Origin: an uncultured Chloroflexia bacterium
GTDB lineage: Bacteria; Chloroflexota; Limnocylindria; Limnocylindrales; CSP1-4
Assembly: GCA_963833225.1 (NCBI GenBank)
Contig: CAWHXD010000017.1
Span: 1-64,000 of the forward strand
Length of the DNA stretch: 64,000 nt
Reading direction: 5' to 3'
Both the position numbers and the translations under genes were made by a program. Positions 1 to 18,863 of this stretch are shown in pieces (position 1 is the first letter of the stretch; every line of letters begins with the position of its first letter). The notes under the pieces were generated by a model. The model did not search any database. It worked only from the letters and a program-made list of their open reading frames with translations, and had not been told where the DNA came from.

Positions 1-229
1 GTGCTGCTCGACGACGTATTGCTGGTCGTCTCCAGGATCACCGTCGCCGGCGCTCTTCCTGGGCACCGTCGCCGTGGCGCCGGTCATCGCGGGCGTCCTC
101 GACTCCTCGCTCCGGGGCGTCGCGCTCGGCGGCACCGGCATCCTGATTGTCGTGTCCGTCGTGGTCGAGACGATGAAGCAGGTCGAGGCCCAGCTGATGA
201 TGCGGAACTACGAGGGATTCATCCGGTGA
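1..229 (+). CDS. secY: Preprotein translocase SecY, C-terminal end (partial, frameshifted)
   Basis: Manual translation gives ...[34 protein letters not shown], the typical SecY C-terminus; followed by adk and map. Confidence 0.93.
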
Positions 230-859
230 TCGTCGTCCTGTCGGCACCCCGGGCGCAGGGAGGCGTCCCCAGGCCGCGGTCCTGCGAGACCGCCTCGGAA
301 TTCCGCATGTCGCCACGGGGGACCTGTTCCGGGCCGCGATCCGCGACGCGACGCCCGTCGGCCTCGAGGCCAGGCAGTACATGGATCGTGGAAAGCTCGT
401 CCCGGATGACGTGACGATCCGCATGCTCGAGGAGCGCCTGGCGCGTCCCGACGCGGCGGCCGGAGCCATCCTCGACGGGTTCCCAAGGACCGCCGTCCAG
501 GCCGTGGCGCTCGACCGGTTCCTCGGGGAACGGGGAGCTCGAGTGGACCCGCGCTGCTCATCGAGGTACCGGCAGAGATCCTCATCGAGCGACTTTCCGG
601 CCGGCTCGTGTGTCGCGAGGGTGGGCATTCCTATCACCTCATCTTCAATCCGCCCCGCCAGGCCGGGATCTGCGACATCGATGGATCGCCGCTCGTGCAG
701 CGCGCCGACGACGCTCCCGAGACGATCCGTGCGCGCCTCGTCGGGACGCTCGACGACCTGAGCGAGGTCGAGGCCCACTACCGTGCCACCGGCGTGCTTC
801 GCACCGTGGATGGACGCCAGCCCGTCGATGATGTCGCGGCGGCCCTCTGGCGGCCCTAG
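226..859 (+). CDS. adk: Adenylate kinase (split by several indels)
   Basis: GTGA overlap with secY; fragments [32 protein letters not shown] region [26 protein letters not shown]. Confidence 0.9.
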
Positions 860-901
860 GCCCGGGTCGCGCGGGACACGACACGCGGCGCTCGAGCTGA
901 C

Positions 902-1420
902 ATGGTCACCCGGAAGTCGAAGCGCGAAATAGAGCTGATGCGCCGAGCGGACGGGTGGTGGCCGAGGTCCTCGCCCTCGTCGAGGGCGAGCTCCGGCCCG
1001 GCGTGACCACCGCCCACCTCGACGGGCTGGCCGAACGCCATATTCGCGCCGCGGGTGCGACGCCGTCGTTCCTGGGCTACCTGGGCGGGGGCGGGTACCG
1101 GCGCGGATCGGGGCATTCCCCGGCCAGCACCTGCATCTCGCTCGATAACGAGGTCGTCCACGGCATCCCCGGCGACCGGGTGATCCGGGACGGCCAGATC
1201 GTCTCGGTCGATGTCGGCGCGATCCTCGACGGGTGGCACGGCGACGGGGCCAGGACGTTCATCGTGGGGGACGCGCCCGAGGAAGCCCGTGACCTCGTCA
1301 CGGCGACGCAGCTGGCGATGATGGCCGGCATCGCGGCCGCCGTGCCGGGGAATCGAGTCGGGGACATCTCGGCGGCTGTCGAGGACATGGCCGCCAGTCC
1401 GGGTACGGCATCGTCAAGGC
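902..1420 (+). pseudogene. map: Methionine aminopeptidase, N-terminal ~60% only (truncated)
   Basis: MVTRKSKREIELMRRAG.., CISLDNEVVHGIP, VSVDVG, GWHGDGART, GDISAAVE..GYGIV; the HGIG motif and later metal ligands are missing. Confidence 0.85.
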
Positions 1421-1851
1421 CGGTCCCCATCAACACCTTGTACGCCGAGCCAGACCGCTCCTCCCAGACCGCTTCAACCGGCAGCCTGATGGCGACCGGC
1501 ACCGACGATCTCGTCTACGTCGGCGGCTGGCTCGACCTGGAGGCGGGGCCGCGAGTGCTGCATGTGCCCGAGATGGCGGGACGGTATTTCAGCGTGCAGT
1601 TCACCGACCCGACCAGTGGCGCCAACGTTGCCTATGTCGGCAAGCGGACCACCGGGACCGACGCCGGTGACTTCCTCCTCTGCGAGCGGCGCTGGACTGG
1701 GAGCGTGCCAGGGGGGATGACCCGGATCGAGGTTCCACATCGCTCCGCCCTGGTCATCGGTCGGGTGTTCGCCGCCGATGACGAGGACCGGCACGTCGCC
1801 TATGCGCTCGCGAAGCAGATCCAGCTCACCCCGCTCGACCACACGCCGTGA
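1421..1851 (+). pseudogene. DUF1254-like protein fragment fused to map
   Basis: TDDLVYVGGWLDLEAGPRVLHVPEMAGRYFSVQFTDP..YVGKRTTGTDAGDFLL..RVF is typical of DUF1254; no start codon of its own. Confidence 0.7.
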
Positions 1852-2141
1852 ACGCCGTTCCGTGACCAGGAGCTGATGGACGGGATCGCGCCGGGCCCGC
1901 ATGGTCGGCCACCATGGCAGGGGGCGCGTCGGCCCCAGAGCGGACGGGTCGGGCGAACCGCGATCGACCCTCCGGGCCGAGCCCGCCTCTCGACGTCTGG
2001 GGTGTAGGACGCGTCTCGAGGATCCGCGGTCCAGGTAGGTCAAGACCTGGCTCGCCGACGCGAACCGTCCCTGCCCGGAGATGCTTGCCCGTTCGCTCCG
2101 GCCGCGATGATGCGGGCTTCATGCGCACCGGGCCGCCCGCC

Positions 2142-2213
2142 GGCGATCCTGGATCGGTCGCGCAGGCGGGGGTGCCATCCGGGGACGTGCTCGACTGGTA
2201 CGCGGCGAGTTGA
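2142..2213 (+). repeat. Degenerate att module (copy E): core-like GGCGATCCTGGATCGGTC + 24 nt + DVLDWYAAS* tail
   Basis: Same spacing and tail peptide as copies at 3529, 3670 and 8961. Confidence 0.55.
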
Positions 2214-2320
2214 CCGTAGGTGTACGTCCGCTCACTCGCTCGGGCTCGGCGAGCACGGCTCGGCGTCATGTCGAGGACCGGCCCCGGGAACCGCCTGGTG
2301 TGGCGTCCGCTACGGATCCG

Positions 2321-2677
2321 TCAGTCGCGGAGGACCTTTTCCAGCGCCTTGCCTTTCGCGAGCTCGTCGACGAGCTTGTCGAGGTAGCGGATCTGCTGCA
2401 TAAGCGGGTCCTCGATCGCCTCGACGCGCACCCCGCACACCACGCCGGTGATCTGCGTCACGTTCGGGTGCAGGTGCGCCGCGGCGAAGAAGTCCTCGAA
2501 GGTCGTCCCGGCGTCGAGGTGGCGGCGCAGCTCGGCGTCATCGTAGCCCGTCAGCCACTCGATCACCGCGTCGAGCTCTTCCTGGGTGCGGCCCTTCTTC
2601 TCCACCTTCGCGACGTAGTGCGGGTAGACGGAGGCGACGGTCGTCGTGAAGATCCGGTGGCCGGCCGTGGTGCTCAT
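2321..2677 (-). CDS. DUF2200 family protein
   Basis: [54 protein letters not shown] signature. Confidence 0.9.
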
Positions 2678-2967
2678 GCCGTGACCGCGAACCAGCGTCC
2701 CTCCGGGTCCGAGAACGCGAAGCTTCGTGTGCCCTGGGGCTCCCCCACATCGGTTGCCTGCACGCCACGTCCGACGAGGGCGGCATGGGTGGCCTCCAGG
2801 TCGCCGACCTGGAACGCGATCGAGGGCGTCGCGAGGTCCATGCCGCCCGGGTTGTCAGCCTTGGCTTCCCGGACCACCGCATGCGCTGCCTCGGCCACAG
2901 CAGGCAGATCCTCGTCCGGGAACGTCATCGCGCCTTCGGGAAACGAGATCAGGTATCGGGGCACCAT
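2674..2967 (-). pseudogene. Chimeric ORF: YCII-like N-terminus + VOC/glyoxalase C-terminus
   Basis: PRYLISFPEGAM..AHAVVREAKA followed by [29 protein letters not shown]. Confidence 0.55.
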
Positions 2968-3029
2968 ATCCTCCTCGGCAGGCTCCAATCCTGCCACGAC
3001 TCGGCGACAACGCGTTGCAGAATGACGGC

Positions 3030-3743
3030 ATGGACGACACGCAGCCCGTCGAGTTCCTCCTGGACGACTACCCGGAGGCGATCCGCGCGACGGGGATGAC
3101 GCTCCGGTCCCTGATCTTCCGCACGGTGCCCGGGACGGTGGAGACGGTGCGCCCCGGCTGGCGGTGGGTCGCCTACTCCCTCCCGGAGGGCAAGCGCGCC
3201 CGGAACTTCGCCTGGGTCGGTCCGGAGCGGAAGCACATCCACCTCGGGTTCGAGCACGGGACGCTCCTCGCCGATCCGGAGCTGCTGCTCCACGGCGCCG
3301 AGGAACGGCTGAAGCAGTTCCGCTACTTCACGTTCGAGCCGTCGATCGACATCGACGAGACCATCCTGTGCGACTTCGTGCGTCGCGCCGCCGACCTCGC
3401 GACGCTGCCCTTTGGCGCACGTCGAGCCCTTGCACTGGAGCGTGCGGCGAACGTACAGGGCCCGCACGCCATCCCCGGTGACTGGGTGCCGATCATCGTC
3501 CCGGATTACGGGACGGCGGGTAGGCGCCGGCGGCCCGGACGGGTCTTGGGGCGCGGACACCCCGAGCGATCCGCTGGCGTGGCACGCGGGCGCCGCGTCG
3601 TGACGCTTCAATCCTGTGTCCCATTGACGCCCCGTGGCGCGGCGACTTCCACCGACAGTGAACCTGGTGGTGGCGCCGGCGGCGGACTTCGCGAGCTCGG
3701 AGGCCAAAGCGGTCGACCCGCTGGCGTGGTACGCAAAGCGTGA
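3030..3743 (+). CDS. DUF1801 (YdhG-like) domain protein; true 3' end uncertain because the frame runs across att modules
   Basis: FLLDDYPEAIR..LRSLIFRTVP..ETVRPGW..HIHLGFEHGTLLADP. Confidence 0.75.
   Translation: MDDTQPVEFLLDDYPEAIRATGMTLRSLIFRTVPGTVETVRPGWRWVAYSLPEGKRARNFAWVGPERKHIHLGFEHGTLLADPELLLHGAEERLKQFRYFTFEPSIDIDETILCDFVRRAADLATLPFGARRALALERAANVQGPHAIPGDWVPIIVPDYGTAGRRRRPGRVLGRGHPERSAGVARGRRVVTLQSCVPLTPRGAATSTDSEPGGGAGGGLRELGGQSGRPAGVVRKA
3529..3603 (+). repeat. Degenerate att module (copy D): GGCGGCCCGGACGGGTC + 22 nt + DPLAWHAGAAS* tail
   Basis: Similar to tRNA-Arg 3'-end core GTGGCGCCCCCGGACGGA; shares GAYCCGCTGGCGTGGYACGC with copy C. Confidence 0.65.
3670..3743 (+). repeat. Degenerate att module (copy C): GTGGCGCCGGCGGCGGACTTC + 24 nt + DPLAWYA tail
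   Basis: Aligns to the core with about two substitutions plus indels. Confidence 0.7.
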
Positions 3744-3835
3744 GGATCCGCCAGTACGCGGCAAGACATTCGCGTCCAGGGCGGCTGCAACACCGGCTGC
3801 TTGCGGGGAACCCCCCGGGCCGCGAACATGGAGCT

Positions 3836-4180
3836 GTGCAGATTGTTGCAGGGCAGATGACCGTCGCACAGCTATCGGCTATGGCTGAGGCCACGTTCGG
3901 CGACCTCGTGAAGGCCGTCGCCGACGTCCGGCGCGGACTCCTCGCGGTTGACGCCGGCATGCACAGCGACCTTGAGGCACTCCTCCTCGACGCCGGGGCC
4001 GTCCAGGCCGACCTCTGGGGCATCAACCTCTATCCGGCTGAGCACGGGACGTCGGGCTTCCTCGAGTTCGACTCGATGATCAACCTCCGCCCAGGCCAGG
4101 GGAACCGGACACGGTCGGTCGAGGACCCTGCGATCCGCGTGGCCATCGCGGAGCTCGTCGATCGTGTGGTGGTGCCGTGA
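3836..4180 (+). CDS. DUF5674 family protein
   Basis: FGDLVKAVADV..DAGMHSDLEALLL..DLWGINLYP..EFDSMINLRPGQGNRTRSVED; GGAG just upstream of GTG 3836. Confidence 0.85.
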   Translation: MQIVAGQMTVAQLSAMAEATFGDLVKAVADVRRGLLAVDAGMHSDLEALLLDAGAVQADLWGINLYPAEHGTSGFLEFDSMINLRPGQGNRTRSVEDPAIRVAIAELVDRVVVP

Positions 4181-4509
4181 CCCTTCATCCCGACCTTACG
4201 CCCGATCGCTGGGGAACCCTGACGTTGGCCGAGCAGCTCGGTAACGCTGGCGCCGATGTCGGTCGGGCGATCCGGGCGCGCAAGGGCGGCAACGAGCTGC
4301 GCTTGGCCGCGAACCTGGACCGCGCTCTGGCCCAGCTCGACCTGACCCTCGCAGACCCGCGCTGGGCCGGCCACCGCCGCCGCGAGATCGCGCGGGCGCG
4401 CGAGGTCGTCTGCGACCTGCTCGCCGGCGACAACGTCTACGACTCGACGCCCGCGTCGGTCGAGCGGTGGTTCATGGCCTATGGGGTCGAGGCTCGGGCC
4501 GGGCGATGA
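4177..4509 (+). CDS. Small all-helical conserved hypothetical protein, translationally coupled to DUF5674
   Basis: GTGA overlap; RW..LTLAEQLGNAGADVGRA..RALAQLDLTLADPR..REIARARE. Confidence 0.75.
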   Translation: MTLHPDLTPDRWGTLTLAEQLGNAGADVGRAIRARKGGNELRLAANLDRALAQLDLTLADPRWAGHRRREIARAREVVCDLLAGDNVYDSTPASVERWFMAYGVEARAGR

Positions 4510-4639
4510 TCCGGGCGCCACCGAGGTAGGCAAGTCGCTTGCTGACACCGCGGCGAGGCATCGCTGCCAGGACGAGTTCGCCTTCGCTTCGGAGGGCTAC
4601 ATGCGGGGCAACCTGGACCTCACGCTCAAAACCCCGTGA

Positions 4640-4967
4640 AGGTAATCACGGCCTGTGCATGGCTTGCTGTCATGGTCGCTACCCTCGCAGATTGCGGTCC
4701 CATCGGGAATGGGGGCGCCATACCCACCTTTGGGCAGCACGAGGGCTTGGCGCGAGTGAGCCCCGCGGCGCGACGAGCGGGAGGATCGAGCGGCCGGAGG
4801 GCTGCCTGACGTAGCAAGCTTCGGGAGCCATCAGGCCTCCGCTCCTGATCTGGCCCACTGGCTGCTCGCCCGTTGAAGGCGGCGATGGCGTCATTGGCGA
4901 AGGCCGGGTCATTCGGTTCGGTAACGGGGTCGGCCTTGGCGGAGGCGAGTATACCGACGAGGGGTGA
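4640..4967 (+). pseudogene. Degraded exported/lipoprotein remnant
   Basis: AWLAVMVATLADCG signal-like segment, then GCLT*..LLIWPTG..VIRFGNGVGLGGGEY with an in-frame stop. Confidence 0.35.
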
Positions 4968-5091
4968 GCCCTCGAACCTTGCCTCGGCAAGGATGGTCCG
5001 CTGCCGGCGTCACACGTTCGGTTGAGCCGAAGTGCTAACGCCGGGCGACCGCGGACGACGCGAACGGACGACGACACCAAGGGGGAGCGCG

Positions 5092-8000
5092 TTGGGCAGA
5101 GGGGAAATCCGGCCGCGACGGTCCAGCCCGCTAGCCGCTGTCGCGTGCGCCGCCGTGCTCGTGATGGCATGCGCACCGACCATCCCCGAGCCGCTTCGGC
5201 CGACGTCAGCGCCCTCGGCGAGCCCAGAGTCTGCGCCGCCTTCCGCGACACCCTCGCCTACTCCGGCGCCGCCGGAGCTCGTGCCCTACAAGGCGCTTCG
5301 GACGAACGTTGGCTCTGCCTGGTCAACGCTGCTGCTGCCAGACGGGCGGGTCATGATCTCGGGCCTGGCCTCCAGCTCCTCCGATGACCTGACCTATTGG
5401 GCCGTGTTCGATCCGACGAGCGACACCATTGCGCAGGAAGGCTCACTGCCGGGCAACAACGGGCCCGAAGGGGTTCTGCTGGGGGACGGCCGCGTGGCAT
5501 TCGGTGCCAGCGACGGATCAGCCCTGGTCCTCGATCCCCGCACCGGCAAGACGACGAAGTCGGCCAGCCTCAAGAAGCTGCGGCCGGTCGGCACGCCCAG
5601 CGGCGGGCAAGGCGGATTGGAGGGCAGCGTCTGGGTCGAACTGGCCGACGGCCGCGTCCTCGCGGCGGGCGGTCCCCGAATGGTCTGCGCAGGCGAGGGC
5701 GGGTGCTACGACCCGACCGCATCCGCCTTTGCACGCACCGCCAGGATCGACGATCCGCGCACAGGCAAGAGCCGCCCAACCGGATCGATGGTCACACGAC
5801 GCCGGACCGGGACGGCGATCCTCCTCCGAGACGGGCGGGTGCTCGTCGCCGGCGGCGACCAGGGCTTCTGGCAGAACGACCCGGGACCACATGTCGTGCT
5901 CGCCGCGGCGGAGATCTACAACCCGCGGACGGGCCGGTTCACCAGGACGGGGTCGCTCCATCAGGCGCGGACCGGCGCGGCCGCAGTTCTGCTCGGGGAC
6001 GGGCGCGTGCTCATCGCGGGCGGCTATGTCGACGGCCCGACCGACCGATGCACGGCGACCGTGGAGATCTTCGACCCGGCGACGGAACGGTTTGCCACGA
6101 CCGGATCGATGACCGCGCCCGGCTGTGGGGGCGACGCGACCCCGCTCCCCGACGGCCGCGTCCTCGTGACCGGGGGCCAATGGTCCGAGCTGTTCGATCC
6201 GTCCAGCGGGCAGTTCTCACGCGTCAACCTGCCCGCCTACTCCGGGTTCTCCCGACCCGTCGTCCTCCGCGACGGCCGGGTGGCGATCGCGGCGGATCCG
6301 CAGGTGCTGCTCGTGTATGCGCCGGACGGAATGCCGCGCCCCGAGCCGGGCGGGCCATCGGTGGCGCAGTGGGGGCCGTGGCCGGCGAGCACGCCGTCGC
6401 CACCCCGGAAGCCAGCGCCGGCTGGTCAGTCGATCCACGTGGTCATGGTCGTGGGACGGTCCGTTTGGGACGAGTCCCCGTTTGACGCCGTGCAGCTCGA
6501 TGACGGGCGCGTCATGGTCATCGGCGGCGAGGATGTGGCCGACCTCCCGACACTCGGTGGGCCGACGTTCGAGTATTTCGATCCCGCGACCAACACGTTC
6601 CGAACCGGCGGGCGCCTGCCGACCGCCATCTCGGTCGATCCGACGGTTGCGACCAAGCTGTCCGACGGGCGCGTCTTCTTCGTCAACTACGACCACACGG
6701 CCACCATCTTCGACCCCCGCGACGGATCGTTCACCAAGGTCGGTCGAATGGTGCACGATCACTTCTACGACACGGCTACCCTGCTCGCGGACGGCCGCGT
6801 CCTGCTCGCCGGCGGCGCAATGGGCGATGGCTTCGTCCGCGACGCGGAGCTGTTCAACCCCGCCACGGGAAGCTTCGCCGCGACCGGATCCATGACGACC
6901 GGTCGCGAGCACGCCAAGGCGATCCGCCTTGCGGACGGCCGCGTCCTGATGCTCGGCGGCGACGGCGGATCGCCCGAGGGTCGTTCGGCTGCGGCGCCGG
7001 CTCCCGTTCTCGCCTCGGCCGAGGTCTTCGACCCGACGACCGGTCGGTTCACTGCCGTCGGTTCGATGCACGAGCCTCGAAGCGACTTCGACACGTCCCT
7101 GCTCGCCGACGGCGACGTCCTCGTTGCCGGAGGAACCCCCGTGGACACCTCCCCGCTCGATGGGGCCGAGCTCGATACGGCCGAGCTCTTCGACCCCGTG
7201 ACCGGCCAGTTCAGCCCGGTGGGAAGGATGTACGAGGCGCGCAGCGGGCTGGTTCTGGCTCCATTGCCGGGCGGGCGGGTGCTGGTGGTCGGCGGCGGGT
7301 CGGCGGAGCAGGCCGAGGTCTATGACCCCGCTCGCCGCGGGTTCGTTGCAGATGATCTCGACAACTTCGATGCGGAGGATGCGTTCACGCTCCGCGACGG
7401 CCGGGTCCTGCTCCTCGCGGGCGGCGGCGGTGAGGTGTACTCCCCGCCGCCGGCGTCACCGGGCCCCTCTCCGTCGGCCCCCGTGGCATCGACCACACTG
7501 CCTCCTTACGTGGACATGCCGCTCGTCTCGGTCCCCGGCTGGGCTCCCATCTCCGTCGGGGTCCACTCCTGGAAGCGGAGCTCGCCACTCGTAGGCCCCT
7601 TCGACTACGCCGATGGCCTCGACGATGGCGATCTCGACGTCACCGACCTCGGCACTGGATCCGTGCGAACGATCACGCTTCCCGTGCGGACCAACGAGGA
7701 GTCCTCCGCTCTTGACGCGAACGGGCATTGGCTGGTCATCGAGGCGGACAAGCGGGTCAAGTCGTGCGATAGCGAAGGGTCTGGCGTCGCCTGGCGCCTC
7801 CTTGTGGTGCCACTGGGCACGGATGGCCTCCCGGCGAAGGCCTTCCGGGAGATTGCCGCGGGATGCACGCAGGCATTCGAACTGTCCGCCGCGCTCAGCG
7901 GGAACCGGCTCGCGTACGCCCCGCCGGCCGACGGATGGCAGTCGGGCTCGACCGTCGTCGTCGTCGACCTCTGGTTCAGCAGCAGTGACGTGGCCGTCGC

Positions 8001-8550
8001 GCGGTACACCACCGGTCGGCAGGTGGTGGACATCGACGTCTCCGCAGATGCTGTGGCCTGGATCGAGTCCGCGGATCGGTCCACCAACGGTGGCAACCAG
8101 GATTGGGCGGTGATGCTTGCCCGGGGGGGCGATTCGGCGCCGCGGGAGGTGACCGTCGGCGGTCACGGCGCGAGCTCCTTCCCTGACACGATCGCGCTGG
8201 ACGGCAGCGCCGTGGTGGCCTCGCTTGGCTCTTCACCGTTCCCATCCGGGGCCGTGATTCGGACGGACGGCGGGTCGCTGTCAGTGGTCGCGCCGACGGC
8301 TCCGGGCCGGGAATGCACGGCCCTCGGAGCGGGTTCCGGCCACATCCTGTTGGAATGCTATGGGGAAACGTACGAGTGGCTCGCCGTCTGGTCCAGTGGG
8401 GCCGGATTGCGGGCGATCGCGGTGGACGGGGCGCCAGTGACGCATGACGGCGCCTGGATCAGCGGCGACAGCCTGGTCTGGGAGGACCTCGCCTCCGACA
8501 CCGACGTGTACAACTCGGTTCCACTCAGCGTGCTCCGCGATCTGCCATAG
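5092..8550 (+). CDS. Large Kelch/galactose-oxidase-type repeat lipoprotein (two 7-repeat propellers + C-terminal domain)
   Basis: Lipobox-like AVLVMAC; 14 L-x-DGRV-like repeats with E-x-F/YDP-x-TG motifs; Pro-rich linkers; RBS GGGGAG before TTG 5092. Confidence 0.85.
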   Translation: MGRGEIRPRRSSPLAAVACAAVLVMACAPTIPEPLRPTSAPSASPESAPPSATPSPTPAPPELVPYKALRTNVGSAWSTLLLPDGRVMISGLASSSSDDLTYWAVFDPTSDTIAQEGSLPGNNGPEGVLLGDGRVAFGASDGSALVLDPRTGKTTKSASLKKLRPVGTPSGGQGGLEGSVWVELADGRVLAAGGPRMVCAGEGGCYDPTASAFARTARIDDPRTGKSRPTGSMVTRRRTGTAILLRDGRVLVAGGDQGFWQNDPGPHVVLAAAEIYNPRTGRFTRTGSLHQARTGAAAVLLGDGRVLIAGGYVDGPTDRCTATVEIFDPATERFATTGSMTAPGCGGDATPLPDGRVLVTGGQWSELFDPSSGQFSRVNLPAYSGFSRPVVLRDGRVAIAADPQVLLVYAPDGMPRPEPGGPSVAQWGPWPASTPSPPRKPAPAGQSIHVVMVVGRSVWDESPFDAVQLDDGRVMVIGGEDVADLPTLGGPTFEYFDPATNTFRTGGRLPTAISVDPTVATKLSDGRVFFVNYDHTATIFDPRDGSFTKVGRMVHDHFYDTATLLADGRVLLAGGAMGDGFVRDAELFNPATGSFAATGSMTTGREHAKAIRLADGRVLMLGGDGGSPEGRSAAAPAPVLASAEVFDPTTGRFTAVGSMHEPRSDFDTSLLADGDVLVAGGTPVDTSPLDGAELDTAELFDPVTGQFSPVGRMYEARSGLVLAPLPGGRVLVVGGGSAEQAEVYDPARRGFVADDLDNFDAEDAFTLRDGRVLLLAGGGGEVYSPPPASPGPSPSAPVASTTLPPYVDMPLVSVPGWAPISVGVHSWKRSSPLVGPFDYADGLDDGDLDVTDLGTGSVRTITLPVRTNEESSALDANGHWLVIEADKRVKSCDSEGSGVAWRLLVVPLGTDGLPAKAFREIAAGCTQAFELSAALSGNRLAYAPPADGWQSGSTVVVVDLWFSSSDVAVARYTTGRQVVDIDVSADAVAWIESADRSTNGGNQDWAVMLARGGDSAPREVTVGGHGASSFPDTIALDGSAVVASLGSSPFPSGAVIRTDGGSLSVVAPTAPGRECTALGAGSGHILLECYGETYEWLAVWSSGAGLRAIAVDGAPVTHDGAWISGDSLVWEDLASDTDVYNSVPLSVLRDLP

Positions 8551-8591
8551 CGCTAACACGGCCTGCCCGCAAGCGGGAGGACCTGCGCCGG

Positions 8592-9035
8592 ATGCGACAC
8601 CTGCCAGACCTGGGGACCCGGGGCCGGCGTGCCGGGCTCGCGGCGGCCGCCAAGCGTCCCACAGGTGCGTACACATGGGGCCACCTGTCCGAGGCCGACG
8701 AACGGGCGGAGCGGCGCAAGATCGACCGCGAGCCGGCCGACCTGCCCGCCCCAGCCAACTTCAACCTGATCGCATTCGGCCGGAGCGCGACGCGGCTGAT
8801 CCCGTTCGCCGAGAGAATCCGAGAGACCACTCGCGAACACCAGACATTGAACGTCCGGCACATCGTCGATCGGGTGGTCGTGGCGGACCGCTCGGTGCGG
8901 GCGATCGGCGGGAGGCTCGAGGCGAGGCCCTTCTTCGAGGACTTCAGCGACGTTGTGGCAGTGGCGCCCCCGGACGGACTCACGGCCTCCCCGTCCGACA
9001 GCGGGGACTCCCTCGTGTACTACGCCGCGATCTAG
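8592..9035 (+). pseudogene. Large serine recombinase/integrase C-terminal remnant reading through att core
   Basis: AYTWGHLSEADERAERRKIDRE coiled-coil segment, IVDRVVVADR..ARPFF beta tail, then VAPPDG encoded by the tRNA-like core. No catalytic domain present. Confidence 0.7.
8961..8981 (+). repeat. att core (copy B), duplicate of tRNA-Arg 3' end
   Basis: GTGGCGCCCCCGGACGGA is identical (18 bp) to 10118-10135; 20/21 when extended. Confidence 0.92.
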
Positions 9036-9241
9036 CTTGTTGCCTGGTCGGAGTGTGGCCGAGCCCTGCTCGGACGCGTTGGTCGGTCTCGGCAGTAGTC
9101 GCAGCGATGGTCGCCACATGCCGCTTCGTGCCAACGATCCTCGTTCGGGCAGTAGAAGGCGTCATGGCGCTCGTTGTAGCTCAACGGCCGGCCGCACTCT
9201 TGGCAAGGGGCCCCGCGTATCTCGTCCTGGACGTCCACCAA
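9032..9241 (-). CDS. Small Cys-rich putative zinc-binding protein
   Basis: CQECG..YNERHDAFYC..W.EAACGDHRCDYC..RP. Confidence 0.65.
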   Translation of the reverse strand: MVDVQDEIRGAPCQECGRPLSYNERHDAFYCPNEDRWHEAACGDHRCDYCRDRPTRPSRARPHSDQATS

Positions 9242-9247
9242 CCGAGT

Positions 9248-9970
9248 CTACGCCGCGTCGTTTCGGGCGGAGACGCAGATGGCGAAGCTTGCATGCCGCT
9301 CGCAGCGCCGCGCCGCGGGGTGTGTGGCGGTGGGGGCGCGCTCGTCCCCCGCGTCCCCTGCGTCCCCGGCATGAGGCTCAGACAGCCTTTGCCGTTCCCC
9401 CACGGCGTCGAAGGCTGCGAGCACGGTCGCCCTCACGTCGGGGCCCAACTCCACGATGAAGCTCTGCTTCTTGCCCAGCCCATTCAGGCTGGTGCCAAAC
9501 AGCAGCATGCGGTTGTCGTCGACGGCGTAGCGGTCGTGGAGCGCACCGGGGCAGCCTGCCTGACCTCGATCTTGTTGCCGTGCTCCTTGCGGAATGCGGC
9601 CAGATCGCGCGAGAACACCTGCGGCCGGTTGATGTTGTTCACGGTCAGGAGCCGGATGTCGTTGGCCGCAGCGGCCTCAGCGAGGAGGTCGAGGGAGCTG
9701 GACTCGACGTACGGATCGTCAGAAACCGAAGAGTGCCGATCAGCGATCGCATGACTGCTTCCGCGGAACGCAGGCCGGTCAGCGCCTTGTCGGGCTCGAT
9801 GAATACGACGTCAGGTCGCCGCCCGGGCGTCAGCCCGTCCGCCCGAGCTTCTCCTTGCCTACTGCCAGCACCCAGAGCACCCGCTCCCGCTCCGACAGCC
9901 CGCCGACGGCCGGGTACTCACTGACATCGGCGCCGCGGAACGGCGCCTCGAGCTGATCCTTAGGAGGCAT
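9248..9970 (-). pseudogene. PLD-like (HDR-x-x-x-D) nuclease-fold protein, frameshifted and possibly internally deleted
   Basis: Manual translation: DPYVESSSLDLL..IRLLT..EVR..LHDRYAVDDNRMLLFGTSLNGLGKKQSFI. Confidence 0.6.
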
Positions 9971-10009
9971 CGTCCTCGCCGTTCGTGACCGCCGTGGCGC
10001 CGGGCTTGC

Positions 10010-10183
10010 GAGTAGTCCGCCGAGCGCCGGAGCTTGGTCGCGGCCGAGCTCGCGCGGCCCGAGTACCTGCCGCTGCTCGCCGCAAGCGCGGCGCATGCGA
10101 CCAGGTCAGGCGTTGGCGTGGCGCCCCCGGACGGATTCGAACCGCCGACGCCAGCCTTAGGACGGCTGCGCTCTATCCACTGA
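10010..10183 (+). pseudogene. Second recombinase C-terminal remnant reading antisense into the tRNA
   Basis: LVAAELARPEYLPLLAAS..VGVAPPDGFEPPTPALGRLRSIH*; same VAPPDG frame as at 8961. Confidence 0.45.
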
Positions 10184-10194
10184 GCTACGGGGGC
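10119..10194 (-). tRNA. tRNA-Arg(CCT)
   Basis: 76-nt cloverleaf GCCCCCG TA GCTC..CAGCC GTCCTAA GGCTG..TTCGAAT..CGGGGGC G CCA. Confidence 0.96.
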
Positions 10195-10235
10195 GCGCTC
10201 CGGATCGTACCTGACCGGGCCACAATCCAGCGGGA

Positions 10236-10634
10236 TCAGCCTGTGGATGGCCCAGGCTCCGCGCGATTGCGCATGGCGTCGGCTGCCATCGCCACGTAGT
10301 CGTGCAGCCGCTCGCGCACGTCCGGGAGGGCGCCCGAGGCGTCGATGGCGGCCCGCATGTGGAGGAGCCATCGGTCGCGCTCGAGGCTGCCGATGGGAAA
10401 CGGCGAGTGGCGCGCGCGGAGCCTCGGGTGGCCTCGCTCCTCGAGGTAGGTGGTCGGCCCGCCCCAGTACTGGACCAGGAACAGGGTGAGCCGGCGGCGC
10501 GCGCCGGCGAGATCCGCTTCGGGTACAGGGGACGCAGGACGTCGTCCGACGCGACGCCCCCGATAGAAGCGGTCGACGAGGGCCTCGAAGAACGGCATGC
10601 CGCCGACCTGGTCGTAGAGGGTGGGCTCGGACAT
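10236..10634 (-). CDS. glbO: Group II truncated hemoglobin (compensating indels mid-gene)
   Basis: TLYDQVGG..LVDRFY..FLVQYWGGPTTYLEERGHPRLRARH.PFPI..RDRWL. Confidence 0.88.
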   Translation of the reverse strand: MSEPTLYDQVGGMPFFEALVDRFYRGRRVGRRPASPVPEADLAGARRRLTLFLVQYWGGPTTYLEERGHPRLRARHSPFPIGSLERDRWLLHMRAAIDASGALPDVRERLHDYVAMAADAMRNRAEPGPSTG

Positions 10635-10726
10635 GGCGACGGGATTGTACGGACCGGGCCGGCTCGGCGGGGTCCTCGACGCGCTGCCCAGCGGCCGAAC
10701 CGCGGCTCCCTCGTACAATCAGACCC

Positions 10727-11017
10727 GTGACCACTCCCCTCCCCGATGTCGTGCTCTGTACAGCCGCCCGGGCTGCCACCTGTGCGAGGACGCGCGCGCG
10801 GCGCTGGACCGGCTGCTGGCGGAGCGCGGCACCCGCGGGCTGCCCGTCCCCCGGCTGGTGGAGATGGACATCGAGTCCGATGACGAGCTGCACCGACGCT
10901 ATCGCCCTGGCGATCCCGGTGATCGCCATCGGCGGGCGCGAGCTGGAGCTGGCCACGTCACCCGCGAAGGTCCGGCGCCTGCTCGAGGACGTCCTGGACG
11001 GGGCATCCCCGGCATGA
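10727..11017 (+). CDS. Glutaredoxin-like DUF836 protein (frameshifted)
   Basis: LYSRPGCHLCEDA..DIESDDELHRRY..IPVI across frames. Confidence 0.8.
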   Translation: MTTPLPDVVLCTAARAATCARTRARRWTGCWRSAAPAGCPSPGWWRWTSSPMTSCTDAIALAIPVIAIGGRELELATSPAKVRRLLEDVLDGASPA

Positions 11018-11824
11018 GCGACTACACGCTGCTGGTGGCCGTGGGAGCGGGCGTCATCTCGTTCCTCTCCCCGTGCGTGCTGCCCCTGGTCCCGGCGTAC
11101 ATCGGGCAGCTCACGGCGGTCGCGGTGGCGGCCCACGGTGGGACCCGGGCCCCATCTCGCTGGACGGCGGTCCGGCACGCGATCGCGTTCGTGCTGGGGT
11201 TCGGGGCGGTGTTCACGTTGCTGGGTGTCACGGCGGCCTTCGCGGGCGGCGCGATCGCGGACTACATGAAGCCGCTGCGGATCGTGGGTGGCGGGGTCCT
11301 CGTGATCATGGGCCTGAGTCTCGCGGGCATCATCCGGATCCCGGTCCTGGAGCGCACGTGGCGTCCGCTCGATGCCGGTGCCTCCGCCGTCCCTGGCGGC
11401 GTCCACCGGCGGGATGTCGCTGGCTCCGGCGGGTGGCGGAGGCTTTGGCGGCCGGATGGGGACCCGTCTCGTCGGCCAGCGGGTGGGGCTGGGCGCCGCG
11501 TTCACGCTGGGCGCCATCTTCGCGATCGGGTGGACGCCCTGCATCGGCATCGTGCTGGGCGGGATCCTGACGATGGCAGCGACCTCCGATACGCGGCTGC
11601 AGGGCGCGCTGCTCCTGGTGGGCTACACGGCGGGCCTGGGGATCCCGTTCATCCTGATCGCCGCGTTCTATGACCGGGTGCGCGGCCTCACGCGGTTCCT
11701 CGTCCGGCATGGCCGGGCCGTGTCGCTGGTCGGCGGGCTGCTGGTGGTCGCCATCGGCCTCGCGATGATGTTCGACTGGCTGGTCCTGCTGCCGCGGTGG
11801 TTCCAGTTCGTGTCGTTCGTATGA
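11014..11824 (+). CDS. ccdA: Cytochrome c biogenesis protein CcdA (frameshifted)
   Basis: AGVISFLSPCVLPLVPAY; GWTPCIG; GLGIPF. Confidence 0.9.
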
Positions 11825-12520
11825 GCGACAACGGGGAGACGCCTCTGTCACCGGAGCCGCCGGAACGACACGGGATGGTCGGACCGTTCTCCGGCCGGCA
11901 GCTGCTCACCGCGCCTGGCCGCCGTGGTCGTCGCCGTGGTCGCCCTGGTCGTCCTGACGCGGCCGATCGCTCCTGGTCCGGGCTCGGCGCCCCCGACAGC
12001 CCTGCCGGACACCACGCCCTACGTCGTCGGGTCGGCGGTCACGGGACTCCAACCCGGCCAGCAGGCGCCCGACCTGTCGTGGCCGGCTACCCGACGGGTC
12101 CACGGTGGTCCTGACCGACCTCGATGGCGCCCCGGTCCGGCTGGCGGATCTGCGCGGCAAGCTGGTGTGGCTCAACTTCTGGGCAACCTGGTGCCCGCCC
12201 TGCCAGGCCGAGACACCGGTGCTGCGCGACATGGACGAGACGCTACCGGGACCGCGGCCTGGTCATCGTCGCGATCGCGGTCCAGGAGACGAGCGTCGAC
12301 AACGTCAGGGCGTACGCGGATCGCTACGAGCTGGGCTACCGGATCGCCTTCGACGCGTCCGCGGACGCCTTCGACCTGTACCGGGTGTTCGCGCTGCCGA
12401 CGCAGGTCTTCATCGGTCCCAATGGGGTGGTGCGCCAGGTCGTCAACGGGCCCGTTGACCGACACGACGGCCCGCCAGTGGATCGAGGCGATGCTCCCGG
12501 CTGGTGCGGCCGGGGGCTGA
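11821..12520 (+). CDS. Membrane-anchored TlpA/ResA thiol-disulfide oxidoreductase (frameshifted)
   Basis: [26 protein letters not shown]; [11 protein letters not shown]. Confidence 0.88.
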
Positions 12521-12563
12521 TCGGCCGGCGGCGCCGGAGCTCGCGCCTGGCCCCTTCACCCTG

Positions 12564-12684
12564 GGTGAACGCTTCGACATCGAAGCCGATGGCCGGGCCT
12601 CTCTCGACACGTGATGTCCACCGTCAGTGAGCGAACCTGCGCGGGGAGGCGGTTCGCGGTGCCTTCGCGACCGAAGCGTTCACC
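12564..12684. repeat. 121-bp element with terminal inverted repeats
   Basis: GGTGAACGCTTCG (12564-12576) / CGAAGCGTTCACC (12672-12684) perfect 13 bp, extendable imperfectly to ~24 bp. Confidence 0.6.
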
Positions 12685-12695
12685 GACAGTCAACT

Positions 12696-12778
12696 CGGCC
12701 GGCGATGCCGCGGCGGGCGATGCCGCGGCCGGCGATGCCGGCGATGCCCCGGCCGGCGATGCCGCGGCCGGTCGATGC
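12696..12778. repeat. Short tandem repeat (~15-bp unit CGGCCGGCGATGCCG)
   Basis: GGCGATGCC at 12701, 12716, 12731, 12740, 12755 plus a degenerate copy. Confidence 0.8.
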
Positions 12779-12781
12779 TGC

Positions 12782-13648
12782 CTACAGCCCCTCGAACCGG
12801 TACCGGTCGCGGTCCGGGACCAGCCGGCCGACGGGCATCCGTGCCTCGTGGCTGAGGACCACAATCCAGTCGTCCTCGACGGCTCGCCGGAACAGCTCGC
12901 CCTTGACCTCGACCGAGTCGAGCGGGAAGTCGTCGAACGCGGTCACCCAGCGCGGGTTGGCTGACCACGGCCGCATGCACAGGTCGCCGAAGAAGGCCAG
13001 CGACCGGGCGCCCGGCCCGGAGCCGCTCACCACCACCGCCTGGTGGCCCGCCGAGTGCCCGCCGGTGCGCACCACGGACACGCCCGGCAGCAGCTCCCGG
13101 TCACCCTCGGTCCAGCCCTCGGCTCCCCAGTCGACAACCAGGCGCAGCTCGGGCTGGTCGTACGAGGCCACGAGCCGGCTGTTGTCCCCCAGGGCGATCT
13201 CCCACTCCTGCCGCTGGGCGACGATCCGCGCCCGCGGGAACGCCTTCGACCCGTCGGCGCGGAGCAGCCCGCCGGCGTGGTCGAAGTGGAGGTGGCTCAT
13301 CGCGACCACATCCACGGTCGCAGGGTCGAACCCGGCTCGATGGAGCGCGGGGACGATGGGCGTGCCCTCGTACTGGCGCATGGTGGCGTTCTTCTCGTCG
13401 AGCCGCTCCCCGATGCCGGTCTCGATCAGCACCCGGCCCGCGGGCGTCTCCACCAGCAGGCAGTTGAGGGCCTGGAGCAGGCGCCGGTTGGCGTCCAGCT
13501 CGCCCTCGGCCAGGTTCCGCCACAGGATCCACGGCACGGGCCCCAGGATCGCCCCCGCATCCGTGCGGAACGTGCCGGCCTGGACCAGCGCCACGCGCAC
13601 CCCCCCGCCGAGGTCCGTGCTCCAGTGGACCGCGTCGTTGATGGCCAC
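12782..13648 (-). CDS. MBL-fold metallo-hydrolase (YtnP-like)
   Basis: SHLHFDHAGG, GGHSAGH, FFGDL. Confidence 0.88.
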   Translation of the reverse strand: MAINDAVHWSTDLGGGVRVALVQAGTFRTDAGAILGPVPWILWRNLAEGELDANRRLLQALNCLLVETPAGRVLIETGIGERLDEKNATMRQYEGTPIVPALHRAGFDPATVDVVAMSHLHFDHAGGLLRADGSKAFPRARIVAQRQEWEIALGDNSRLVASYDQPELRLVVDWGAEGWTEGDRELLPGVSVVRTGGHSAGHQAVVVSGSGPGARSLAFFGDLCMRPWSANPRWVTAFDDFPLDSVEVKGELFRRAVEDDWIVVLSHEARMPVGRLVPDRDRYRFEGL

Positions 13649-13651
13649 GGG

Positions 13652-14245
13652 TCAGGCGCCCTCGCGAGCCTTGCGGCCTCGCTCGAAGTCGGCGTGGAAG
13701 GCGGATGCCGTGGGCTCGGACTGGCCCTGGTACTTGGACCCCAGCTCCTTGGAGCCGTACGGCCGTTCCACCGGCGAGCTCATCCGGAAGAAGCTGATCT
13801 GGCCGATCCGCATCCCGTAGTAGAGCGCGATGGGCAGGTTGGCCACGTTCGAGAGCTCCAGGGTGAGGGTGCCCTTCCAGCCCGGGTCCACGTACCCTGC
13901 CGTCGAGTGGATGAGCAGGCCGAGGCGCCCAAGCGAGCTCTTGCCCTCGAGCCTGGCGACGAGGTCGTCCGGCAGCTCCACCCATTCCGTCGTCTGGCCC
14001 AGCACGAACTCGCCCGGGTGCAGGATGAACGGCTCGTCATCGGCGATGGCCAGCATCTCCGTCAGATCCGGCTGGGGCGTCCGCGGGTCGATGAACGCGT
14101 ACCGGTTGTTGCGGAACACGCGGAAGCTGCGGTCGAGGTGCAGGTCCACGGACGAGGGCTGGAGATCCGCCGCGTCATAGGGGTCGATGCGCACCCGCCC
14201 GGCCTCGAGCTCGGCCCGGATGTCGCGATCGGCCAGGACACTCAT
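13652..14245 (-). CDS. dcd: dCTP deaminase
   Basis: [44 protein letters not shown]. Confidence 0.96.
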
Positions 14246-14724
14246 CGGGTGCGCCTTCCCTTCTTGGGTGATCCTTCGGCGAACAGCTGGTCCACCTCTC
14301 GCTTGAGATCCTCGAGGTCCTCGAAGCTCTGGTAGACGGAGGCGAAGCGGATGTAGGCGATGTGGTCCAGCCCCCGGAGCTTGTCCATCGCCAGCGCGCC
14401 GACCCGCGACGACGGGATCTCCGACAGGCCCGACGAGCGGAGCTCACCCTCGATCTGGTCGGCGGCCCGCTCGGCGGCGTCCTCCGCCACCGGGCGCCGG
14501 GTCAGGGCCTTCGCGAGGCCGGCGGCGAGCTTGTCGCGGTCGAACTCCTGGCGGGTCCCGTCCCGCTTGGCGACCACGAGCCGCGCGGCCTCGACCCGCT
14601 CGTAGGTGGTGAACCGGGCGGTGCATGACGGGCACTCGCGCCGCCGCCGGATCGTCGCGGCCTCATCGAGGTCCCGTGAATCCACGACGCGCGTGTCCCG
14701 GGTGCCGCACTGGGGACAGCGCAT
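14242..14724 (-). CDS. nrdR: Transcriptional repressor NrdR
   Basis: [30 protein letters not shown]-cone, AYIRFASVY. Confidence 0.97.
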
Positions 14725-14746
14725 GGACCCTCCAGACCTCCTCGCA

Positions 14747-14793
14747 CCACTATCCCTTGTGGTATCGGCCGAGAATACCACTACATGCGGGGG
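14747..14793. promoter_or_regulatory. Tandem NrdR boxes
   Basis: CCACTATCCCTTGTGG (14747-14762) and CCACTACATGCGGGGG (14778-14793), 31 bp start-to-start, directly upstream of nrdR. Confidence 0.7.
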
Positions 14794-15398: not shown

Positions 15399-15426
15399 GC
15401 GATCGGGGCCCTGTCCCGGCGCCCGC

Positions 15427-17186: not shown

Positions 17187-17221
17187 GTGGGCACCACTCC
17201 CCTGGTCGAGCGCCGGCCGGT

Positions 17222-18406: not shown

Positions 18407-18564
18407 GCTAGCAGCGGCATCCCCCATTCGGGGCGGCTCTGCCGGGGGCTGATCGTCCGGGATGACAACGCCGCCGGGGTTGCGTAGGCTGTGCGAGCAA
18501 CCGGCGAGGGTCGGGCAGTCCACCGGGGGCGGTCCCGACACTCTCCTGGTCTGGGTGTCGTGTC

Positions 18565-18786: not shown

Positions 18787-18863
18787 CGCCGGGCCCGCCC
18801 TCGTTCCTGGCCCGCGGGGCGCCGCGCTCGCCCCGTGCCGCCGTGCCGCCGCGCTCGCGGCAC

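Follow-up and report, generated by a model that had tools for sequence, protein, structure and literature searches.

A probable tandem array of decayed large serine recombinase elements at a tRNA-Arg(CCT) gene of an uncultured Chloroflexia bacterium

Introduction

How did putative copies of the end of one tRNA gene, each followed by a similar coding motif, come to lie in a single orientation beside that gene? The question is raised by a stretch of 64,000 nt, called the window here, from an uncultured Chloroflexia bacterium (Chloroflexota; Limnocylindria; Limnocylindrales; CSP1-4), which comprises positions 1-64,000 of the forward strand of contig CAWHXD010000017.1 in assembly GCA_963833225.1. 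A sequence-only reading had proposed that one family of elements integrated repeatedly at the end of tRNA-Arg(CCT) and lost its integrases, and homology to large serine recombinases (LSRs), native integrase tails at four scars and an intact LSR in a relative support this proposal. We consider 2133-10138 to be a tandem array of decayed integrative elements downstream of the tRNA gene (probability about 0.8), best read as successive LSR elements whose integrases have since been lost, at least three and probably four in number.

Results

Copies of the tRNA 3′ end

The 3′ end of tRNA-Arg(CCT), with its CCA at 10119-10121, points towards the array, and the attR core spans the CCA, the 3′ strand of the acceptor stem, the 3′ strand of the T-stem and the start of the T-loop.

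10119-10194, minus strand: tRNA-Arg(CCT), the integration target (ARAGORN; Rfam tRNA, 60 bits)
10118-10138, plus strand: attR core, reverse complement of the tRNA 3′ end
8961-8981, plus strand: displaced tRNA 3′ fragment (core) at the junction of units 3 and 4; 18 nt exact, 20/21 against the tRNA

A 21-mer core with up to three mismatches occurs in the window only at 8961 and 10118 (0.04 expected), and the exact 18-bp copy noticed earlier at 8961 was confirmed, being identical over 18 nt and at 20 of 21 positions overall, in an attP-like arrangement (P-P′). Local alignment to the tRNA end scored 38 at 8961, 24 at 3670, 22 at 3523 and 14 at 2142, with background frequencies per 46-nt segment of <0.0002, 0.0016, 0.003 and >0.16, respectively, and the similarity of the cores to the tRNA end drops with distance from the tRNA. 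The degenerate cores proposed at 3670 and 3529 hold up, but the one at 2142 scores within the background, so at scar 1 the tail alone, and not the core DNA, is significant. The proposed growth of decay with distance applies to the cores (38 to 14) but not to the tail scores, which are not monotonic. This combination of a tRNA gene with displaced 3′ fragments in the same orientation (8961, and in degenerate form 3670 and 3523) is the signature used by Islander, which also looks for an integrase gene in each island; here there is a single 136-residue remnant.

Native integrase tails at the scars

2133-2213, plus strand: scar 1, outermost; core unrecognisable as DNA; tail ...GDVLDWYAAS and stop; 16.6 bits with the tail HMM
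3523-3603, plus strand: scar 2; core 3523-3546 with a 5-nt insertion; tail ...DPLAWHAGAAS and stop; 13.0 bits (at 3535)
3670-3743, plus strand: scar 3; degenerate core 3670-3690; tail ...DPLAWYA at 3715-3735, native stop lost; 13.8 bits (at 3700)
8982-9035, plus strand: tail 4, native LSR C-terminal tail (P′ arm) at the left end of the proximal unit; ...DSLVYYAAI and stop; 26.2 bits

The regular expression D.L.[WY][YH]A matches four times in the six-frame translation of the 64 kb, always on the plus strand and at the sites already proposed. Since this expression was chosen post hoc, an independent test was made using an HMM of the C-terminal tails of 8 database relatives, with the window sequence excluded. 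Its five best matches in the same translation were at 8958 (26.2 bits), 2133 (16.6), 10115 (14.4), 3700 (13.8) and 3535 (13.0), of which 10115 is the tRNA junction itself, and the next-best match, outside the scars, reached only 7.2 bits. Across 100 dinucleotide shuffles of the window, 3 matches reached 13.0 bits and none 16.6, or about 0.03 matches of ≥13.0 bits for each shuffled window of 64 kb, both strands included, so that against this background the scars and the tRNA junction take the top five ranks. The motif D-x-L-x-W/Y-Y/H-A described after each core, at four sites in the same orientation, is the native C-terminus of the LSR family, and a stop is retained 1-4 codons past it in three of the four scars, as in native tails. 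The spacers between core and motif, claimed to be 24, 24, 22 and 24 nt for cores at 8961, 3670, 3529 and 2142, measured 24, 24, 18 and 21 nt from those same coordinates, the first two as claimed and the last two shorter. Overall, the data support that the four scars carry the native tail of the family, as expected of the attL site of such an element.

Window tails scored 44-47 against database tails and 19-38 among themselves; each is nearer to the tails of other elements than to its neighbours, which favours separate integrations over local duplication. The outermost tail (16.6 bits) outscores those of the two middle scars (13.8 and 13.0). No two window tails resemble each other more than those at 3523 and 3670 (score 38); these two scars lie 147 nt apart and could be a single event. 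Just ~70 nt separate scars 2 and 3, so the unit between them is empty, in agreement with the ~70-bp empty unit recognised before.

A remnant of a large serine recombinase

8574-8960, plus strand: 5′-truncated LSR gene, C-terminal ~130 residues from the post-zinc-ribbon region up to the core; in frame and stop-free
10016-10117, plus strand: candidate 3′-terminal ~100 nt (P arm) of int, the integrase gene, in the tRNA-proximal element; weak tblastn match, DNA alignment requiring a 14-nt insertion

The search for recombinase homologues of ORF 8592-9035 returned LSR C-termini, including a 510-aa protein (P0002) with Resolvase (PF00239), Recombinase (PF07508) and Zn_ribbon_recom (PF13408) domains, to whose residues 367-496 the ORF is 49% identical over 130 aa. 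At E≤1e-3 an exhaustive search returned the window's own ORF (P0003) and 52 other proteins, 53 in all, and an LSR matched 8574-8981 in tblastn with an E of 3e-38. The recombinase remnant thought to abut 8961 was thus recovered, and an HMM built from the 36 int residues that precede the core gave 47.7 bits at 8856-8963. The first ~360 LSR residues, and hence the resolvase catalytic domain, are missing from the copy at 8574-8981, and a Pfam scan of the fragment gave no match, neither PF07508 nor PF13408 being present. As the catalytic, Recombinase and zinc-ribbon domains are absent and what is left shows homology to the C-terminal part of genuine LSRs, the window holds a remnant of the family rather than a functional member; tblastn detected no intact integrase in the 64-kb window, only this stretch of ~136 residues.

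A second remnant, claimed at 10118, was not substantiated. The int C-terminal HMM was blank at 10016-10117, and the tblastn match beside the tRNA (9884-10150, E 0.016) is interrupted by stops and rests largely on tRNA-encoded residues. Frameshifts are also present in core genes of this assembly, so these stops may be artefacts. The supposedly youngest, tRNA-proximal unit is the most stripped, with no recognisable int, while 136 clean residues survive in the older unit 3.

An intact integrase in a relative

A related locus (L001, Ca. Limnocylindrales) encodes an intact LSR of 519 aa (8894-10453) that has the three Pfam domains named above, including a catalytic domain (PF00239, 3.4e-17) with the catalytic-serine motif YVRQS. 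It is matched by the structure of the A118 integrase, 4KIS (E 3e-07), and by the phrog_95 integrase (1.8e-63), and reads into the orthologous tRNA-Arg(CCT) at 10389-10464. In this comparison of the orthologous site with one related locus, the right flank shows synteny to positions 10734-21303 of the window, with nucleotide identities of 67-75%; left of the tRNA the two have nothing in common and the cargo differs, and no attL was found within 8.9 kb in the relative.

Among 120 listed relatives, 112 have both PF07508 and PF13408 according to a precomputed column, 7 lacking PF13408 and 3 lacking PF07508. With a manual reading of the class 'other' included, the int C-terminus reads into a tRNA in 82 of the 120, the ends being ..CPQGDSNP (49), ..EPPTxALGRxRSIH (23), ..RPRTDSNRRRxP (7), GAPGRTRTAD.. 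(2) and one cut at ..EPPTV. Native tails (..LxWY[AV]A, ..RLLAYA, ..ELLAA, ..LAAYL) are found in 25, some of these genes lying on contigs >100 kb; 2 have variant tails, and 11 are truncated or unclear. Phage and plasmid records gave no close match to the recombinase.

Cargo between the scars

2321-2677, minus strand: unit 1, DUF2200 protein (Pfam 3.6e-51)
2674-2997, minus strand: unit 1, small ORF with a weak glyoxalase/VOC-like match (Pfam Glyoxalase E 0.005, under the cut-off)
3030-3500, plus strand: unit 1, DUF1801 protein (Pfam 4.6e-07)
3857-4180, plus strand: unit 3, DUF5674 protein (Pfam 3.5e-31)
4177-4509, plus strand: unit 3, 110-aa ORF with no Pfam match
5032-8550, plus strand: unit 3, Kelch-repeat protein of up to 1172 aa with internal repeats (Pfam Kelch_6 5e-37)
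9032-9241, minus strand: proximal unit, 69-aa Cys-rich ORF with a weak zinc-ribbon-like match (Pfam HVO_2753_ZBP E 0.006, under the cut-off)
9248-9970, minus strand: proximal unit, one gene split over at least three reading frames (stop-to-stop ORFs)

The Pfam scan took in 17 ORFs and bore out the DUF2200, DUF1801, DUF5674 and Kelch assignments made earlier, but not the VOC assignment. The supposed DUF5674 pair is a single DUF5674 gene, as ORF 4177-4509 has neither a Pfam match nor similarity to DUF5674, and the label 'PLD-like' found no support for the gene at 9248-9970, which matched nothing in Pfam or PHROG. The frame breaks in that gene may be artefacts, given the frameshifted core genes of the assembly. 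The DUF1801 open frame continues through the scars since no stop codon interrupts it. Each block between scars would be the cargo of one element.

Outside the array, a separate rearrangement marks the left border.

955-1851, plus strand: left border zone; methionine aminopeptidase cut at ~residue 151 and continuing in frame into a DUF1254 fragment (Pfam)

Discussion

We infer the following order of events, in which the graded decay of the cores is the sole guide to time. In this family attP sits within the last ~20-25 codons of int, where the codons ...V-A-P-P-D-G also reproduce the tRNA 3′ end (P arm) and are followed by a ~24-nt P′ arm and the conserved C-terminal peptide ...D-x-L-x-W-Y-A-x-stop. 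Crossover would presumably occur where the 18-21-bp identity ends on its right side, in the T-stem/T-loop region. The tRNA would be restored by the element's own copy, int would then continue into the tRNA and so acquire the tail ...EPPTPALGRLRSIH, and the old tRNA end with the native tail would remain at the far end as attL. With attP inside the end of int, integration exchanges the native tail for tRNA-encoded residues, in line with the 82 relatives that read into a tRNA and the 25 with native tails. Each integration would also rebuild the left half of the target, so attR would presumably be reusable as attB and further elements could stack, a re-use suggested by the 18-21 bp that the P arm and the B arm must share; textbook LSRs are not known to recombine attP with attR. 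Later deletions would have removed the integrases, leaving attL scars at 2133, 3523, 3670 and 8961, the int remnant at 8574-8981 and small cargo blocks.

Insertion at the distal attL, instead of the tRNA-proximal attR, would produce an identical topology in which the outermost unit is youngest and the order is reversed. The int-core-tail junctions would be arranged identically, the T/C difference at core position 19 fits either order by reasoning, and both the loss of int, most complete in the unit next to the tRNA, and the higher score of the outermost tail agree with distal growth. We regard it as quite improbable, because the best-kept cores are nearest the tRNA (18/18 at 8961 vs unrecognisable at 2142) and the sole int remnant in good condition is found in the array's inner half. 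The topology is also silent on the place of assembly, and a composite or multimeric element with several internal P-P′ junctions, or an array built in another host, could have arrived en bloc and suffered deletions afterwards, with no serial history here. The relatives with native tails, some on long contigs, provide a lead, as P-P′ junctions of this kind would be compatible with tandem or composite arrays in other genomes, these being proteins without genomic context. Such an arrival seems unlikely, as a single recent event would be expected to bring scars of similar age, whereas core decay is graded and the four tails come from different sub-lineages.

The core DNA, not significant at 2142 and modest at 3523 and 3670, could also mean that 8961 is the only real att scar, with a single island remnant of 1.2 kb next to an int fragment of greater age, and that the other three arose by chance in GC-rich DNA or, for 3523 and 3670, by local duplication. 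Shuffled windows do occasionally reach 13.0 bits, and within the window the tails at 3529 and 3670 pair most closely with one another. Nevertheless, three matches were found where ~0.03 were expected, all of them on the expected strand and on the expected side of the tRNA, no more than 8 kb from it; each of the three weaker sites has a properly spaced stretch resembling the core, two retain a stop where native tails have theirs, and outside the scars and the tRNA junction no match in the window exceeds 7.2 bits, making a single scar very hard to believe. Serial integration at the tRNA end thus remains the reading that we prefer.

The native C-terminus (...LAWYVA, ...RLLAYA, ...ELLAA) follows acidic residues and is conserved across clades only ~40% identical. 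It looks like an ssrA-type degron or a regulatory peptide, and, given the presumed crossover, would be located just outside the ~24-nt P′ arm. We tentatively raise the possibility, which we hold to be speculative, that integration acts as this family's switch on its own integrase by swapping a candidate degron tail for tRNA-encoded residues. If so, the stability of the integrase, or even its directionality, would differ between the free and the integrated state of the element. As each integration rebuilds the full target half-site, the tRNA end would be a self-renewing landing pad, where elements stack without a directionality factor blocking re-use.

Tandem islands at tRNA genes are already known, as is rare tRNA targeting by serine recombinases, and targeting of a tRNA by a serine integrase whose gene end holds the attachment site is uncommon. 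In staphylococci, SCCmec and composite SCC elements are inserted by LSR-type Ccr recombinases at the 3′ end of rlmH (orfX), which is restored, and they stack in tandem with direct repeats between them. Their target is a protein gene, their att lies outside the recombinase gene, and Ccr is unrelated at the family level to the LSR described here. The likeness to integrons, with small gene blocks stacked between recombination sites beside a fixed site, is a loose analogy: the stacked blocks are present, but IntI, attI, attC and Pc are not, no tyrosine recombinase being found among the 17 ORFs scanned and only tRNA by Rfam in 1-12000. The units were once autonomous with their own integrase, and, unlike the cassettes of integrons, they are separated by attL scars, which contain a peptide-coding tail.

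Islander counted 125 tandems of at least two and 4 of at least three among 3919 islands (PMC4383910). As described there, tandem islands of the Islander/TIGER kind share with this array a tRNA gene, displaced 3′ fragments in direct orientation, cargo between them and several units per tRNA, their integrases being tyrosine recombinases, in contrast to the LSR here. Since every unit here has no int or only a remnant, the locus would fail Islander's demand for an integrase per unit. The earlier remark that a serine-type recombinase at a tRNA is unusual agrees with the literature, which calls such cases rare and names Mycobacterium AICEs (tRNA-Leu) and phage phiRSM1 (tRNA-Ser) (PMC3218068). These also target a tRNA gene with a serine recombinase, and, going by their description, they belong to another protein family and host phylum; the passages concerned describe neither an attP inside the int frame nor arrays.

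Closer in design are the SSV-type ('suicidal') archaeal integrases, which have att inside the int frame, target tRNA genes and change the int product on integration (PMC8371274). According to that account they are tyrosine recombinases exclusive to archaea, and integration splits and inactivates the gene; in the LSR family, by contrast, the exchange affects no more than the last ~15-25 codons and spares the catalytic domains, as in the related locus. In mycobacteriophage BPs and its relatives, attP lies in a coding region, and integration removes a C-terminal ssrA-like degradation tag and alters stability (PMC4557955). That integration-dependent immunity, as reported, places attP in the repressor gene and uses a tyrosine integrase, whereas here attP lies in the serine integrase gene, and the family, if the proposed switch is real, would provide a serine-integrase counterpart of integration-dependent immunity together with a natural system of serial stacking.

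The tRNA-Arg(CCT) core and the integrase remnant

The accretion array that the sequence-only reading had proposed at tRNA-Arg(CCT) is genuine: 2133-10138 consists of decayed large serine recombinase (LSR) elements, and the evidence for this is an exact copy of the tRNA core at 8961, scars that an HMM of integrase tails scores above shuffled sequence, and LSR homology. The target and the integrase tails lie as follows.

10119-10194, minus strand: tRNA-Arg(CCT), 3′ end directed toward lower coordinates
9006-9035: native integrase tail
3715-3735: native integrase tail
3568-3603: native integrase tail
2184-2213: native integrase tail

The sequence GTGGCGCCCCCGGACGGA is the reverse complement of the tRNA 3′ end, and its exact second copy at 8961, already reported, was confirmed: a search with the 21-mer core allowing up to three mismatches found only 8961 and 10118 in the window (expected, 0.04). 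Core DNA scores against the tRNA end were 38, 24, 22, and 14, the last of which is not significant as DNA. Translated in three frames, the five sites read ..V-A-P-P-D-G.. followed 6-8 codons on by D-x-L-x-W/Y-Y/H-A, with a stop 1-4 codons past this motif at three of the four scars, and a regular expression for the motif had four matches in the whole six-frame translation of the window, all at scar sites. The spacers earlier given as 24, 24, 22, and 24 nt were slightly off, and measure 24, 24, 18, and 21 nt from the core coordinates used in that reading.

ORF 8592-9035 had no Pfam match, yet over 130 residues it is 49% identical to the C-terminal region of a protein of 510 aa carrying Resolvase, Recombinase, and Zn_ribbon_recom domains; tblastn locates the LSR remnant at 8574-8981 (E 3e-38). 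The recombinase homologues sought for this ORF were found, as an exhaustive search returned 53 relatives at E ≤ 1e-3, fragments for the most part, and the remnant is that of an LSR. A tyrosine integrase island was ruled out, as no such gene is present in the window and the remnant belongs to an LSR. The C-termini of the 53 relatives are of two kinds. The first ends in ..APPDGLEPPTQALGRPRSIH, the peptide obtained when a tRNA-Arg gene is translated backwards in frame (the window tRNA read in the same way gives ..APPDGFEPPTPALGRLRSIH), and the second in ..APPDG-(8-10 residues)-DPLxWYAx; therefore, the motif noticed earlier is the native integrase end. The tRNA-like core sits within the integrase reading frame.

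A further recombinase remnant had been placed at 10118, and we could not confirm it, because an HMM of the 36 integrase residues ahead of the core matched solely at 8856-8963 (47.7 bits) and nowhere adjoining the tRNA, the weak tblastn match beside the tRNA (E 0.016) contains stops and leans on tRNA-encoded residues, and a DNA alignment of the putative integrase end requires a 14-nt insertion.

Scars compared with background

The tail HMM was built from eight database tails, with the window sequence excluded. Its top five matches in the six-frame window were 8958 (26.2 bits), 2133 (16.6), the tRNA junction (14.4), 3700 (13.8), and 3535 (13.0), and the sixth-best scored 7.2 bits. Across 100 dinucleotide shuffles of the window, 3 matches reached 13.0, 1 reached 13.8, and none reached 16.6. 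On the correct strand and the correct side of the tRNA, and within 8 kb of it, the three weaker tail matches are many more than chance would produce, because three matches of at least 13.0 stand against ~0.03 per 64-kb shuffle. The window tails are nearer to tails of database elements (similarity 44-47) than to one another (19-38), which argues for separate elements; the tails of 3529 and 3670 are the most alike window pair (38), and by their sequence these two scars could represent a single event. A repeat search of the window returned chiefly Kelch repeats, and the scars were not among them. GC content in the array is about 0.65-0.74 (mostly 0.68-0.71), slightly below the right flank (0.72-0.74), a difference that is not diagnostic.

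Cargo and borders

Several cargo labels required revision. Only one DUF5674 gene is present where a pair had been described, neither Pfam nor PHROG supports the "PLD-like" label, and the VOC gene does have its match, but under the Pfam cut-off. Cargo gene 9248-9970 and ORF 4177-4509 match nothing in Pfam at E ≤ 5 or in PHROGs. Most of the third unit is occupied by a very large Kelch-repeat ORF of up to 1172 aa (5032-8550), with numerous internal DNA repeats spaced ~150-170 nt.

Core genes are also broken: adk is split across frames within 236-859 (ADK piece at 381-761, ADK_lid piece at 608-859), and so is a DsbD-type gene within 10727-11824 (DsbD_TM piece at 11372-11824). These splits probably represent indel errors in the assembly, or else a decaying genome, and therefore frameshifts in the cargo are no proof of decay. 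At 955-1851, a methionine aminopeptidase (Peptidase_M24) breaks off near residue 151, and its frame runs on into a DUF1254 fragment; the fusion, at the variable region's left border, represents either a deletion joint or a misassembly.

A related locus with an intact integrase

A single genome scan, using the profile of a 6-sequence alignment and the pattern [VG][RQ]LEARPFF, yielded a single locus, L001, in a MAG of Candidatus Limnocylindrales. Its LSR (519 aa) combines the three domains with a YVRQS serine motif, and the gene runs directly into tRNA-Arg(CCT). Right of this tRNA, 10 kb of sequence align in synteny with window 10734-21303 (67-75% identity), and L001 is therefore the orthologous site. 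To the left, the two share nothing: the 8.9 kb in L001 encode acyltransferases, a PALP-CBS enzyme, a glycosyltransferase, and a solute-binding protein. The orthologous site thus differs in content between the window and this one related locus. An attL was sought in those 8.9 kb with the tail HMM (best score beyond the LSR, 7.9 bits) and with a core search allowing up to three mismatches, and neither found one. A 211-aa ORF at L001 8262-8897, overlapping the LSR start by 4 nt, has an HTH DNA-binding match (phrog_11473, 3e-07) and is a candidate regulator or directionality factor.

The T-loop position is T at window 10136 (A57 in the tRNA) and C both at 8979, in the 8961 junction, and at L001 10406 (G57), so the 8961 scar retains the variant found in the tRNA of another genome. 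The bacterial-globin gene at 10236-10718, adjoining the window tRNA, has no nucleotide counterpart in L001 10465-10860, and blastn synteny begins only past it, at window 10734 and L001 10860.

The integrase family

Searching with the L001 LSR gave at least 305 proteins at E ≤ 1e-20 (8000 candidates scored), with source names including Limnocylindrales, Acidimicrobiales, Actinobacteria, and Anaerolinea; the family has many members in uncultured Chloroflexota and Actinobacteriota. We took a census of C-termini in the 120 relatives listed among the 305, sorting the "other" class by our own reading. In 82 of the 120, the protein runs into a tRNA, the frame being one of three or the tRNA being of a second kind; 25 end in a native tail (..LAWYVA, ..LEWYVA, ..RLLAYA, ..ELLAA, ..LAAYL); 2 have variant tails and 11 are cut off or ambiguous. 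Thus, an attP in the 3′ end of the integrase gene (int), together with a tRNA 3′-end target, is a property of the whole family. In this census (proteins P0056-P0173), a clade of ~40% identity, with 49 of the 120 relatives, ends in ..CPQGDSNP, the in-frame reading of a different tRNA, and 7 relatives read an Arg-type tRNA in a second frame (..RPRTDSNRRRxP), so the int-embedded attP design serves several tRNA targets.

The 25 native tails (..LAWY[AV]A, ..RLLAYA, ..ELLAA, ..LAAYL) are often preceded by acidic residues and are reminiscent, by analogy, of ssrA-type degradation tags; integrated copies end without the native tail. No sequenced phage or plasmid had a close relative of the LSR: the best match spanned 62% of the query with 30% identity, and the C-terminal region was covered by none. 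Among solved structures, the A118 integrase C-terminal domain comes nearest.

Proposed mechanism and order of events

Our observations establish LSR homology, an attP within int, the tRNA target, and attL-type scars. The crossover would lie where the 18-21-bp identity ends on the right, at the border between T-stem and T-loop, because all sequence between the crossover and the CCA end must come from the element; T in the window tRNA versus C at the 8961 junction and in the L001 tRNA is compatible with this position. The ~24-nt spacer would be the P′ half-site, with the D-x-L-x-W-Y-A peptide directly past it, and since this peptide lies beyond the half-site and is conserved across ~40% identical clades, its conservation suggests selection at the protein level. 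Of the target's left half, the P arm would have to reproduce 18 bp or more, so that attR would be nearly a full attB again, which would permit stacking of elements, the integrases being presumably lost by later deletions. Textbook LSRs are not known to carry out attP x attR recombination.

The farther a core lies from the tRNA, the more decayed it is, in keeping with insertion at the tRNA-proximal site, the order proposed in the sequence-only reading. Tail scores that are non-monotonic along the array run counter to this order, as does the loss of int, which is most complete in the proximal unit. Insertion at the distal attL rather than at the tRNA would be expected to leave an identical topology, and so would arrival of the whole array en bloc. 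We put the order of the sequence-only reading at slightly better than even, roughly 55-60%. The integron-like nature once suggested for the array is a loose analogy, and an integron proper is ruled out by the absence of both IntI and attC.

Significance and comparison with known systems

The main interest lies in the integrase family revealed, more than in the array itself. Serine integrases are preferred tools for large-DNA insertion, as short sites suffice and host factors are unnecessary, and their natural targets are usually protein genes, with each site used once. This family departs from that pattern in its tRNA 3′-end target, in the attP within its own reading frame, and in the apparently re-usable site it leaves. 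It would contribute compact int-attP modules of a new class, together with conserved landing sites, and would explain small accessory genes accumulating beside tRNA genes in poorly studied phyla; island finders seeking only tyrosine integrases at tRNA genes would overlook such LSR islands.

Stacked LSR elements are already known from SCC composite islands. In the literature we found no LSR family described as carrying attP within int and targeting a tRNA, and supplements may list such cases; in a large LSR survey, the word tRNA occurs 0 times (PMC10083194). The relevant passages on a widely used island-finding tool state that no serine integrase is known to use a tRNA gene (PMC4383910), and Ghinet et al. 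describe serine-recombinase integration into tRNA genes as rare, naming, in the section concerned, phiRSM1 and eight Mycobacterium AICEs (PMC3218068). Tandem islands at tRNA genes, counted in an excerpt of the same tool paper as 125 tandems of at least two and 4 of at least three among 3919 islands, involve tyrosine integrases (PMC4383910), whereas the array in the window was built by LSRs. Archaeal SSV-type tyrosine integrases carry att sites inside int, an arrangement said in the passage cited to be exclusive to archaea (PMC8371274), whereas here the int-internal attP belongs to an LSR. The array is a novel version of already known kinds.
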